This document shows positions 51,600 to 56,516 of a stretch of 64,000 nucleotides of DNA, one piece after another. This stretch comes from Dictyostelium discoideum (lineage: Eukaryota), in assembly GCA_000004695.1 (NCBI GenBank), contig CM000152.2, positions 6,272,001 to 6,336,000 of the forward strand, written 5' to 3'. The stretch's first letter is position 1, and each line of letters begins with the position of its first letter. The position numbers were made by a program, and so were the translations under genes. The notes beneath the pieces are model-generated. The model ran no database searches. It had not been told where the DNA came from and worked only from the letters and a program-made list of their open reading frames with translations.

Positions 51600-53290
51600 T
51601 TATTGTAATTCTTTTAATTCATGAAATTGAAAAATGAGGGATTCAACAAATTTATTTATTGTTTGAATTATTTCCGGAGGTTGATTTTCTGGATTTTTAC
51701 ATTCTAATTCCATTTCATGATATTCACGGTGCAGAGAATATGAATTTAGTATTAAATCAAACAAACCACCTAATATAAATAATTTAGTATATGAGTGGGA
51801 AGAGCTACCTCTAATTGTAGCATAGTAACGTTTGTCTGTGATGTCTACAAGGTTGTACCAGAAAATATATTGATCATGAATCATTTGGGAACGATTCTGA
51901 TGAGTACCAATAACTTTTATTTTTAAATCTTGTAGTTCCTTCTTGGAATAATTTTTGTTTTTATCATATATCCCACCATCTTGAGTGCTATCCAATGGTT
52001 CTAATATTTTTTTAATTTTGTCGTTTTTGTTAAGATTGTTGTTTTCTTTTTTGTATTTATCATTATATATTTGAGCTATGTGTTCAGCTGATAATTTCTT
52101 CAACATTTGTTCGTTCCAAAAAGGACCACATGGTGGTTTTACAAAGTTAGTTTTATATTTGTCATTTAATATTTCCAATGTTGTCCCATGCAATGTCTCA
52201 CCAACAAAAATTAGTTCTAATTCTTTTTTTGAAAAACGAAATAAATTTCCAATAGTTGCAAATTGTTCTATATTTAGATTATTATTAATTTCCACATATG
52301 GGTTTGAATATCTTGAATATAGATTTGTTGCAATGCAATTGATATGACCAGCGGTATTTTTGGTATACTCGTACAATAGTCCTGTGCTTTCATCATAAAA
52401 AAGGAATGTTTTATGTATGGTTAATAAAGGTTTGACGAATATTTTATTTCTTGAGGAACAGTCACGCCACTCTTCCTTGTTGAGGATAAAATACGACATT
52501 TCAATTCATCTAAACATTCTTTATTATTTACTAATGCAAAGGCACTATCGCAACATACGATTAAGTTATTCCTTGGATCCTCCCAATTATATTTTGAATG
52601 TAAATTATCCAAAAGGGTTTTTAATGAATTGAAAGGAGATTGACAGTTTTCTGGTGTTCTTGGACCATAACTAATTACATATGGACAATTACTAATATTC
52701 AATTTGGTTGTTAGACTATATGCTTCAATTCCGACTGAATGGGGTTTGCTATCATTATTAATCAATATATGATCTTTCCCATAATATGCGTATATTGTTT
52801 CATCACAATTGAGAACGTTACCAATATTAATATATTTCAATGCACTGTTCATAAATATTTCACAATACTCTTCAAATCTATGACTTTTCATATCCAAAAC
52901 ATTATGTACTGCTGAATATCTATTGTGATCCATCATTTTTAAATTAATTCAGGTGGTATCTTATCATTGTTTTTATTTGAATAAATATTTTTTAAATAAT
53001 CAGTTATAAATTTCCAGAATGTAATATCGGTTAAATCATTTAATCTTGAAATATCCTTCCCTTTATCTAATTTTTTCTCCCTCTCATGTCTAAGATTTGT
53101 ATTAATTAATGAAATTAAAAATTTTGATAAATCTTCATTTAATAACAATTTAAAAAAAAATAATTCATTATAAACCTGACCATTATTTTCACTTTCAATC
53201 TTTTCTCTATTTATTGATGATTTTCTTGGTGTAGTGTTTTCAACAATTTCGCTATAATTAATTGGTCATACTTTATTATTAAAAATAGAA
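51600..53290 (-). pseudogene. piggyBac-type (DDE_Tnp_1_7) transposase-derived gene, interrupted by at least two frameshifts and lacking an in-frame ATG at the 5' end. It is a decayed or domesticated transposase.
   Basis: Three consecutive minus-strand ORFs in different frames together span a piggyBac transposase. LNCDETIYAYYGKDHILINNDSKPHSVGIEAYSL corresponds to T. ni piggyBac LTIDEQLLGFRGRCPFRMYIPNKPSKYGIKILMM. IVCCDSAFAL...LKCRILSSTRKSGVTVP corresponds to ITCDNWFTSIPLAKNLL...IVGTVRSNKREIP. FLFYDESTGLLYEYTKNTAGHIN corresponds to ESTGKPQMVMYYNQTKGGVD. The frame shifts at ~52936-52941 and within 52421-52499. A K/N-rich insertion is present. Confidence 0.65.
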
Positions 53291-53569
53291 TGGTTAAATG
53301 TTCAATAAAAAAAAAAAAAAAAAAAAAATACACACACTTTCATTTTAATATTTGTTTTCGAAAATAAATATCTGAATTTTTATTAATTTTTTTTTTTTTT
53401 TTTAATTTTTTAAGGTGTAAAAAAATGTGAAAAATTTTTTTATTTTTTGTCAAAAAGTTTTAAATTTTTTAAAATAAAATGAAATGAAATAAAATAAAAT
53501 AAAAAAAGTTTTAAATTAATAAAAAAAATACTTATAATATATTTATTATTTAATTTTATAAAATTGAGT

Positions 53570-56516
53570 CTAACTTCTAGATGACCTTGAGGATGTTACC
53601 GTGGTTGATGGTTTTTGGAATTTTCTTTCTCTTTCTCTAATTTTTTCTTTTTCTCTTTCAATTTCTTTTTGTTTTTCAGCTTCTTTTTCTTTTTGTTTAA
53701 TTACTTTTTCATTTTCCCGATTCATTCTTTCAGATTTACTCATCATAGATTGTGATGGTGTTGATGAGGAAGAGGAAGAAGAAGGGGATACATTTGAAGA
53801 TTTTGAAGAGGATCTACCACTTTGTTCTCTTTCATTTCTTGTTGAGGATTTATCTGAATCTCTTTCATTATTCGATGATGTTGAAGATGATGTTGTTGAG
53901 TCTTTTGAATCTTCTTTCTTTCTTGATGATGATGATGATGATGATGGTTCACTTCTTTGTGATTCATCTTTTTTATTTGAATCTCTAGTTCTAGTGTTTT
54001 CATTTTTATCTGATCTATCTCTACTATTGGTAGAGGTTGAGGATGAGTCTCTGTCTCTGTTATCAGAGGTTTCTTTTCTGGCATTTGATGAGGTATCTCT
54101 ATCTCTATCTCTATCTCTGTCCCTGTTGCCACTACCACTTGATGAGTATGAATGATCAGAATCTTTTCTACCACCACTACTTGATTGATTACTATCTGAT
54201 GCTCTATCCTTACTTTCTCGTTTACTTCCACTAGTTGTTGAAGAATAATCCCTATTTTCTCTATCTCTATTTGAGTCGCTTTTACTTGATGGATAAGAGT
54301 CATTCTCTCTTTTACCACTACCACTTGAGGATGATGTTTCTCTATCTCTTGTTGAATCTCTATCGTAATGATCTCTAGAACTTCTATTATCTGATCTATC
54401 ATCTCTTTCTTTATCTCTTGTACTTTCGCTTCTTCTGTCGGATGATCTATCTCTATCTCTTTCTCTATCCCTATCTCTGTCTCTATCTCTTCTGCTGCTG
54501 CTGCTACTGTCATGGTCATCCCTATCTCTGTCTCTTCTACTGCTGCTGCTGCTATCATGATCATCCCTATCTCTATCTCTTCTGCTGCTACTGTTACTGT
54601 TGCTATCATGATCATCCCTATCTCTTCGGCTGCTACCACTGTTACTGCTGCTACCACTGTCATGATCATCTCTATCTCTTCTGTTGCTGCTACCACTATC
54701 ATGATCATCTCTATCTCTTCTGTTGCTGCTGTTGTTACCACTATCATGATCATCTCTATCTCTTCTGCTGCTACCACTATCATGGTCATCTCTATCTCTA
54801 TCCCTGTCTCTTCTATCATAGTCATCTCTATCTCTATCTCTGTCTCTTCTATTATCGTAGTCATCTCTTTCCCTTCTTTCTCTATCTCTTTCTCTATCTC
54901 TTTCTCTTTCTCTTTCATCGACATCGTCATCTCTTTTTCTCTTTTCACCATGATAATCACCACCGTATCTGTCAGGTGAACTACCACCACTTGACCATTC
55001 ATCTCTTTTTGATGAGGAATAAGGTCTACCACCACCACTACCACTGCCGCCGCTGCCGACACTACTACCACTACCGCCGCTACCATTTGGGGGTGGTGGA
55101 CCACCTTGATAAAAGTAAGGAGGAGGTGGACCGCCAATCATATTTGGAGGTGGTGCACCCCCTCTACCCATATAACCTCCTCTACCACTTGACATTGTAG
55201 CTCCATATGGAGGAGGTGGGAAAGGTGAACCTCTACCACCTCGACCCATATAACCTCCTCTCATTGGTGGAGAATAAAACTCTGGTTGCATTCCAATGGG
55301 TGGTGGTGGACCACCTCTACCACCTCTCATTGAAGCACCTACTGATCTCTTACCACCTCTACCACCTCTTGAATATGGATCAGCATAACCATATGGTGGT
55401 TGTTGTTGCTGTTGTTGTGGTGGTTGTTGATATGGATAAGGCATACCACCAAAATGTGGATGTGAACCACCACCACCACTGCCATTAACACCACCTCCAT
55501 TACCACCATGTTGTGAATTTGACAATGATGATGATGATAAAGATGATTGATGATGAATATTATTTGCAATATTACCACTATTTGTATTATTATTATTATT
55601 ATTATTATGAGAGTTTGAAGAAGAATTTAAATGTTGTTGATTCGATTGATTTGATTGACCTAAACTAATATTCTTAATGGTAGTAAGAGCATTATGATAA
55701 TTTTGTTGAGAAAGTAAACGAATTGTCATCTCTTTACCATTGATTTCTTTTTTCTCAGTTTTTGATTTTGCAAGTTGAGCTTGTTCAATATGTTCAAACT
55801 CTACAAATGCATAACCTTTTGATTTACCATTATTTTCATTTTCAAAGATCTTTAATGTAACAATCTTTCCAAACTCTAAAAATACATTTTCAAGTTGTTG
55901 GTCAGTTGTCCACCATTCTAATCCACTAATATACAATGCTGGTGATAAATCAGTAGTATCAGTAATTGTCGTTGTTGTTGTTGTTGATGATGATTCTCCT
56001 GATACTGTAGATGATGATCCATTATTTGTTCTATTATTGTTATTATTGTTATTGTTATTTGATGTTGAATTTTGATCATTTTCATCATATGTTCCTAATA
56101 TATTCTTTATATATATATAAAATGTAATTCAAAAAAATTAGAAAATTAATAATTTTAAAATTAAATAAAATAAAAATAAATTATGTAGTTACATCATCAT
56201 CATTTTCATCATAAGATTTTTCATCTTCAATTAATCTTATACTGTGAGTATTTTCTGTATCATCATCCATATTACTAGCACTTCTTCTTGATTTATTATT
56301 ATTATTATCATCTTCATCTTCATCATCATCTCTACGTGATGATCCATAATTACTATCACTATCTTCATGATTATTCGATTCACTACGTGTATTCATAGTT
56401 TCATCATTTTCATTTCTGTTTCTATATTTATTATCTTCTATTTCATCTTCTCCAAGTTCATCTTCTGTATGTTTCTTTTCATCTTTAAAGTCTCCATATA
56501 TATCATAATCTTCCAT
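53570..56516 (-). CDS. Cleavage and polyadenylation specificity factor subunit 6 (CFIm68/CPSF6) homolog. Minus-strand exons are 56516..56193 and 56104..53570.
   Basis: The RRM ALYISGLEWWTTDQQLENVFLEFGKIVTLKIFENENNGKSKGYAFVEFEH matches human CPSF6 (LYIGNLTWWTTDEDL...IKFFENRANGQSKGFALV). It is followed by a Gly/Pro/RGG region and a long RD/RS/RE-dipeptide C-terminus, as in CFIm68. The track ORF starts at a TTG. The true ATG is at 56516 (MEDYDIYGDF, compare human DHIDIYADVGEEF). A donor GAT|gtaact is at 56193/92 and an acceptor tataaag| at 56105, phase 0. Confidence 0.75.

Follow-up and report, generated by a model that had tools for sequence, protein, structure and literature searches.

What is left of a gene when three collinear open reading frames (ORFs), each in a different frame, follow one another on one strand? 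The three ORFs in question (53148-52939, 52936-52421 and 52499-51600 in a list of ORFs) lie on the minus strand of a 64,000-nt stretch of Dictyostelium discoideum chromosome 3, which we call the window and to which all coordinates refer unless another locus is named. An initial annotation had offered a decayed copy of a piggyBac-type transposase gene as one reading of them, and this reading holds, as do the three frames and the places at which one gives way to the next. The locus is a gene that already has a name, sslA2, which the initial annotation had not recognized. We consider it very probable that positions 51460-53451 (minus strand) are an inactivated, polymorphic insertion of a 2.26-kb cut-and-paste transposon of the piggyBac superfamily that resides in the D. 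discoideum species complex.

Identity and lesions of the sslA2 locus

A hand-merged translation of the three ORFs matches only five protein clusters among 5.8e9, all of them from D. discoideum or D. cf. discoideum. Their members carry names, the intact form being SslA1, 'suppressor of smlA', an identical protein encoded by two loci of strain AX4. The deposited SslA2 sequence (ABS29555.1; P0024, 424 aa) corresponds to the N-terminal part of the second ORF followed by most of the third, and includes both a copy-specific deletion, seen as GKDHIL, and the peptide ILNDKYK. The three ORFs sit between DDB_G0282867, which is matched exactly by the minus-strand ORF 50173-51255, and an RRM/RD-rich gene ending at 53570. 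Because the ORF peptides match ABS29555.1 and DDB_G0282867 adjoins, the locus is sslA2 of D. discoideum.

Existing gene models accommodate the frame changes in different ways. Specifically, the ABS29555.1 model begins at an ATG at 52936 and crosses the second frameshift by means of a GT..AG 'intron' that is non-homologous, whereas the same locus is covered by two ACTFIT models of 400 aa and 106 aa (ACTFIT_012088/012089). All three models are artefacts that arise when a gene structure is imposed on a pseudogene. The lesions themselves are evident from a global alignment of the window copy with an intact copy (locus L005), and the outer limits of the element were set by comparison with empty orthologous sites (L009 and L010). 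In 2,022 aligned bases the window copy differs from intact copies by 12 substitutions only (blastn/global alignment, L001 and L005). The features of this copy, including the remnants of its terminal inverted repeats (TIRs), are as follows.

51460-53451, minus strand: whole degraded sslA2 element copy, 1,992 bp versus 2,257-2,266 bp in intact copies
53418-53451, minus strand: 5' TIR remnant, GAC^AAAAAATAAAAAAATTTTTCACATTTTTTTA, with the tip CT and nine internal bases (TTTTAACAC) gone
53286-53287, minus strand: site of a 246-bp deletion, by which the start codon, all 31 codons of exon 1, intron 1 and seven codons at the start of exon 2 were lost
53266-53268, minus strand: in-frame TGA, where intact copies have AGA (Arg) within NNKVRPINY
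52939-53265, minus strand: first coding fragment, N-terminal part of the transposase fold (PINYSE...LINTNL...DKIPPELI*), matching P0013
52949-52950, minus strand: frameshift 1, a 4-bp deletion; one AATT unit gone from the 3-unit tandem GAATTAATTAATT
52421-52936, minus strand: second ORF (171 aa), with the first and second putative catalytic Asp and KPHSVG
52446-52447, minus strand: frameshift 2, a 1-bp deletion; one T of GAAATTAAA lost, giving GAAATAAA
51600-52499, minus strand: third ORF (299 aa), insertion domain and C-terminal part of the catalytic domain, stop codon at 51602-51600
51460-51503, minus strand: 3' TIR, TAAAAAATGTGAAAATTTTTTTTATTTTTTGTGTTAAAAGTGCA, with the tip GTCAG altered to GTGCA
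51457-51459, minus strand: TAA at the 3' end, read as the kept copy of a 3-bp target duplication whose 5' copy is eroded to T

The first coding fragment, which has a gene model of its own (P0014), holds ORF 53148-52939, and the lack of an ATG noted for this 5' part is confirmed, with the 246-bp deletion at 53287/53286. In the second ORF, the first putative catalytic Asp codon occupies 52804-52802 (NCDETIY) and the second 52549-52547 (CCDSAF), and a 12-bp in-frame deletion at 52778/52777 has removed KDAI. The third Asp codon lies in the third ORF at 51845-51843 (YNLVD). Both tips of the element are damaged.

Could the frame breaks instead be sequencing or assembly errors, such that sslA2 is really one intact ORF? 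The initial annotation had suspected homopolymer errors; the region is AT-rich, and two other copies of the gene (L001 and L005) differ by a run of seven versus six A's that might itself be an assembly error. However, neither frameshift lies in a long homopolymer, the first being the loss of a 4-bp unit and the second falling within a run of two T's, and, in addition, 246 bp with the ATG are gone from the copy, which also carries a TGA. Moreover, ABS29555.1 contains the shifted-frame peptide WRDCSSRNK together with the 12-bp deletion visible as GKDHIL, and the ACTFIT models share this deletion and the frame breaks, one of them ending at PPELI*, just as the window copy does. Because these independent sequences carry the same lesions, error as the source of the frame breaks is excluded for practical purposes, and we give the intact-ORF explanation almost no chance of being correct. 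Thus, sslA2 itself is an ordinary pseudogene copy of a named gene.

Two other ways of joining the frames were considered and rejected. The slippery heptamer expected for programmed -1 frameshifting is missing from both junctions, and comparison with intact paralogues reveals simple deletions; the same comparison speaks against short introns bridging the junctions.

The upstream neighbor (53570-55936, minus strand) is a 788-aa ORF with an RRM-like N-terminal segment. It contains very long RD/RDRD and Ser-rich low-complexity tracts, and its GC content reaches about 0.5, which is unusual for the D. discoideum genome.

Kinship of SslA with the piggyBac superfamily

The homology between SslA and piggyBac transposases is visible only via intermediates, profiles or structure, because direct searches with PF13843 (DDE_Tnp_1_7) and against the Protein Data Bank (PDB) gave nothing. 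A phmmer search of 1.84e9 representative proteins yields 51 relatives of SslA. The closest outside D. discoideum come from Synstelium polycarpum (1.8e-24) and Tieghemostelium lacteum (6.4e-24), the latter bearing the UniRef name piggyBac-derived domain-containing. Twenty-two of the 51 relatives pass or approach the PF13843 score, and two close relatives, P0030 (38.7 bits) and P0028 (27.1 bits), exceed its gathering score of 22.4.

When a profile of the family is compared with the PDB, Trichoplusia ni (T. ni) piggyBac is matched (6x67/6x68, E=1.6e-12). The DE..G..KP..G block in this alignment places SslA D201 on piggyBac D268, and the YN..VD motif (YNLVD) falls on the D447 region. As a precaution against circularity, a second profile was built solely from members lacking a significant PF13843 match, and its sole PDB match is again piggyBac 6x67 (E=4e-4). 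Structure prediction points in the same direction: an AlphaFold2 model was obtained with a predicted local distance difference test score (pLDDT) of 87 and a predicted template modeling score (pTM) of 0.80, and Foldseek ranks 6x67 first (E=1.6e-7).

Three aspartates, D201, D290 and D525 in the numbering of P0013, the intact 605-aa form of SslA1, are invariant in family alignments and constitute a putative catalytic DDD triad. The motif blocks singled out in the initial annotation are likewise invariant or near-invariant columns of the family, namely DE..G..KP..G with the first D, CCDSAF with the second and YNLVD with the third. No C-terminal Cys-rich (PHD-like) domain is present; the protein ends about 40 residues past the catalytic domain and has no Cys cluster there. 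These profile matches and the predicted fold argue that SslA1 belongs to the piggyBac transposase superfamily, as a highly diverged member with an RNase-H-like fold, an insertion domain and a DDD triad.

Ends, copies and empty sites of the element

If SslA is a transposase, what does it move? Intact or partial copies were examined at eight other loci whose neighboring genes are unrelated. Only about 2.2-2.4 kb is homologous between loci, and the neighboring genes differ at each locus. The intact element is 2.26 kb long and holds one gene only, composed of two exons. TIRs of about 45 bp bound this unit, reading 5'-(C/T)TGACTTTTAACACAAAAAATAAAAAAATTTTTCACATTTTTTTA and its complement, and are conserved at the ends of every copy; the ends of the intact element are 5'-CTGACTTTTAACAC...GTGTTAAAAGTCAG-3'. 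The window retains remnants of both repeats; the initial annotation had noted no obvious ones.

Nor is the window copy alone, as had been proposed together with its immobility. AX4-type genomes hold two further near-identical intact copies (sslA1), and D. cf. discoideum has copies at no fewer than five loci (at least five). The elements at L001 and L005 are identical at 2261/2264 positions, and those at three loci of D. cf. discoideum (L006, L007 and L008) are 99.9-100% identical. The latter three share a premature TGA (L006 11409-11414 and the same position in L007 and L008; KPP*GPFWNEQ, with Cys in intact copies). Because near-identical copies at three loci have one TGA nonsense codon in common, an already defective copy was presumably amplified by transposase supplied in trans.

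Several of these sites are empty in related genomes. Both D. discoideum ACTFIW and D. cf. discoideum are without the element at the window site; there the intergenic spacer measures about 290 bp versus 2.3 kb, and the host flank AATTTAAAACTTTTT continues directly into an A-run. This flank is identical to the one beside the 5' TIR remnant in the window. The L006 site is empty in D. citrinum. At L005 (sslA1) the element is absent from ACTFIR and D. citrinum, and about 1.1 kb of surrounding DNA is missing too, so this is not a clean empty site. Near-identical copies at different loci, together with empty orthologous sites in other strains and in D. citrinum, argue that the family has been recently mobile in the D. 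discoideum complex.

The target duplication was sought by a grid search over all boundary offsets of 0-4 and duplication lengths of 2-8. One model alone gives two or more perfect cases (at least two), namely an element (C/T)TGAC...GTCAG flanked by TAA. A TTAA duplication is found in no copy, nor can any of the copies be fitted by a 4-bp model. The elements of L006-L008 have the termini CTGAC...GTCAG, with C and G present, and those of L001, L004 and L005 begin with T. Comparison of filled and empty sites is consistent with the TAA model. The empty L006 site of D. citrinum reads TTTTTAATG (longer stretch TTTTTAATGTTTT) and the filled site TTTTTAA[element]CAATG (longer right flank CAATGTTTT), a pair that we interpret as a single TAA becoming two, one of which mutated later. 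For the window, the empty orthologous sites read CTTTTTAAAAAAAAA and the filled site reads CTTTTT[element]TAAAAAAAA. The left flank keeps all five T's and the right flank keeps TAAAAAAAA; therefore at least T is duplicated in the window, and the remainder of the left TAA copy is lost along with the eroded tip.

These features suggest a simple cycle. SslA1 transposase would bind the TIRs, excise the element and permit its reinsertion at T-A-A (TWA-type) sites, where a 3-nt stagger would generate a 3-bp duplication rather than the TTAA duplication of piggyBac. The window copy has lost the promoter-proximal exon, both TIR tips and the reading frame, such that it can make no transposase and probably can be mobilized no longer.

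Some observations weigh against reading the window copy as a piggyBac-superfamily transposon with TAA duplications. A hidden Markov model search with PF13843, which the initial annotation had offered as a check, returns no match at E<=10 for the fragments or the hand-merged 516-aa protein, and none for the intact protein P0013 (E<=1) or for the related P0007 (E<=0.01). PDB sequence searches with the three ORFs and the merged 516-aa protein likewise give nothing relevant. The TAA model is perfect in only 3/6 complete copies, with one mismatch in each other copy. Furthermore, one empty-site comparison alone, that at L006, is informative at the base level; it was made between two species and includes one mutated base. 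The window's own 5' junction is eroded. Finally, counting factor reportedly regulates the levels of SslA protein, and a group-size phenotype is also said to exist; SslA could also have, or could have acquired, a host function.

This last point leads to a different explanation, in which the sslA genes are domesticated, immobile host genes of piggyBac origin that act in group-size signaling like PGBD genes, with copies made by segmental or gene duplication and sslA2 a dying paralogue. The title of the published genetics names SslA as a group-size regulator (Gao et al., 2007), SslA1 is listed among developmentally essential genes, and canonical piggyBac has a Cys-rich DNA-binding domain that is absent from SslA. 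Domesticated genes duplicated as segments of the genome would not readily account for the fact that every copy keeps TIRs at its ends, that homology stops exactly at these repeats amid different neighbor genes and next to 3-bp flanking repeats, or that presence and absence differ between strains at three loci. Strains also differ in copy number, one nonsense mutation is common to three loci, and the gene is found in D. discoideum alone according to the literature. We therefore regard domestication as a very unlikely account of the family and retain the transposon reading.

Individual copies offer further observations. In L001, at about 10448, a run of seven A's replaces the six of L005 within GAGGGAG(A)nTTAGAT and breaks the frame; the extra A, whether mutated in that strain or introduced by misassembly of the homopolymer, accounts for the odd 'intron' of model P0006. 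In AX4-type DNA, the approximately 1.1 kb around sslA1 that is absent from ACTFIR (L005 9217-9816 and 12083-12593) contains two direct repeats of about 60 bp, GTGCATAGAT(A/T)AATCTTTCC..., at about 9583 and 9691, and a small acidic ORF. This sslA1 copy may be located inside another insertion. At L004 (9796-9837), a solo 3'-TIR tip stands immediately beside the resident copy's 5' TIR, and the two make up a perfect 28-bp palindrome, GTGTTAAAAGTCAATTGACTTTTAACAC, which could be the remnant of a second element or the footprint of an aberrant transposition. A second, older SslA lineage with about 80% DNA identity is represented by L002 (9674-11781, D. discoideum ACTFIW). Its 594-aa frame (P0007) is open, its ends have diverged until the TIRs are barely recognizable, and it could be a domesticated or fossil copy.

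The GC-rich relative and comparison with known systems

One relative of SslA, P0034 (E=1.7e-12), occurs on 35 metagenome contigs. Ten of these were analyzed (L014-L023, JGI metagenomes 3300076638-3300077502, 57-60% GC), and all carry an identical one-gene element of about 2.3 kb with a TIR of about 40 bp (GCCGTGCTGGCTACCCC...). Every distinct flank meets this element with C-W-G (5' CTG n=5, CAG n=2; 3' CTG n=6, CAG n=2). A trinucleotide belonging to the TIR would appear as CTG at one end and as CAG at the opposite end; because this is not the pattern seen, CWG derives from the target. The same left flank is joined to different right flanks among these contigs, which are assembly chimeras across the repeat, and the pairing of left and right flanks is unusable for establishing a target duplication. 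When metagenome contigs were scanned for exact matches to the 17-nt TIR tip of this relative, 101 stretches were returned, none with an extended TIR. These are chance matches, and one of them, L090, is an unrelated large palindrome. A conserved 69-aa ORF lies directly upstream of the transposase ORF in L014-L023 and is probably a first exon.

Duplications of 3 bp at TWA and CWG are a hallmark of PIF/Harbinger and NuwaI elements. Might a PIF/Harbinger-type transposase move the 2.26-kb unit, with SslA as its cargo or accessory factor? Besides this signature, DDE_Tnp_4 genes adjoin SslA copies (L003 13749-15045) or are fused with them (P0019 N-terminus). However, even in very distant hosts SslA-type proteins retain the DDD triad together with the full piggyBac fold, the GC-rich relative has the same one-gene, TIR-bounded layout, and the unit has no Myb-like second ORF. 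Moreover, the surroundings of the Harbinger gene in L003 contain no SslA TIR motif, and PF13359 (DDE_Tnp_4) is matched by 0/51 members of the SslA family. The Harbinger explanation is, in our judgment, quite improbable, and we continue to favor SslA as the transposase of its own element.

P0019 (ACTFIZ_004225, on a 20-kb contig) is one gene model in which a Harbinger-type transposase is fused upstream of a full SslA ORF; its N-terminus matches PF13359 (E=8e-19) and is truncated at profile position 125/158. The DDE_Tnp_4 gene at L003 13749-15045 lies 1.7 kb from the SslA copy there. SslA elements may insert into or near Harbinger elements.

A broader proposal can be made, although we hold it with slightly less than even confidence. 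SslA-type proteins may form a distinct, unrecognized piggyBac clade, found in dictyostelids and in a GC-rich eukaryote, whose elements would integrate at YWR trinucleotides (TAA/TWA or CWG) by 3-nt staggered cuts and so show the target signature of PIF/Harbinger/Nuwa. Such a clade would link two IS4-like eukaryotic superfamilies, and the counting-factor protein SslA would be the transposase of a currently mobile element. If true, a piggyBac fold with 3-bp TAA/CWG duplications would mean that the 4-nt TTAA stagger is not fixed in the fold, which bears on how target choice is encoded and on the engineering of piggyBac-type tools for other target sites.

In the reachable literature, SslA is a novel protein or one of 'Unknown' function, and SslA1 is described as 'Unknown' and D. 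discoideum-specific; here it is a piggyBac-superfamily transposase encoded by a TIR-bounded polymorphic element. Thus, a published regulator of group size is re-read as a distant piggyBac-type transposase, and sslA1 and sslA2 as transposon copies (SslA1/SslA2, Gao et al., 2007, Eukaryot Cell 6:1538; UniProt SSLA1_DICDI; GenBank AAM34288, ABS29555), the window locus being sslA2 and the intact copies encoding SslA1. The phenotype of sslA1(CR11) may stem from the dosage of transposase or from some effect carried by the element, and not from a dedicated signaling protein, and a transposon origin offers a simple explanation of the status of sslA1 as a D. discoideum-specific, developmentally essential gene. 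The D. discoideum mobilome would also gain a piggyBac-superfamily element. Classical lists of DNA elements contain DDT, Tdd and thug only, in agreement with the initial annotation that piggyBac-type elements are not among the classical families, and a 2026 preprint states 'not reported in D. discoideum'. Among Amoebozoa, only Entamoeba appears in a survey of 157 piggyBac-like elements; the same survey records rare non-TTAA flanks, in five single-copy elements, and ascribes them to mutation. Judged on the literature that was searched, the SslA family looks like a so far undescribed variant within the piggyBac superfamily, and prior informal annotation in Repbase or dictyBase is possible.

The SslA element resembles piggyBac (T. 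ni piggyBac, piggyBat; PF13843; PDB 6x67, 9c0f) in its DDD triad, its DE..G..KP..G and YN..VD motifs and its single ORF between TIRs; its termini, 5'-C...G-3' in L006-L008 and with an initial T in three other copies, may point the same way. It differs in that its transposase is too divergent for PF13843 and has no C-terminal Cys-rich domain, its gene has one intron, its target duplication appears to be a 3-bp TAA rather than a 4-bp TTAA, and its TIRs measure about 45 bp rather than 12-19 bp. With PIF/Harbinger and NuwaI (PHIS superfamily) it shares 3-bp targets, TWA-type for the Dictyostelium copies and CWG-type for the GC-rich relative; unlike these elements, SslA is not a DDE_Tnp_4 protein, is not accompanied by a second ORF of Myb/SANT type, and has a fold nearest to piggyBac. 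Similarly, SslA recalls the domesticated piggyBac genes (PGBD1-5, PiggyMac, Tpb2, Kobuta) as a piggyBac-derived protein with a reported cellular phenotype. Whereas those genes are fixed at a single locus and have lost their TIRs, the sslA copies keep theirs and vary in number and position between strains.
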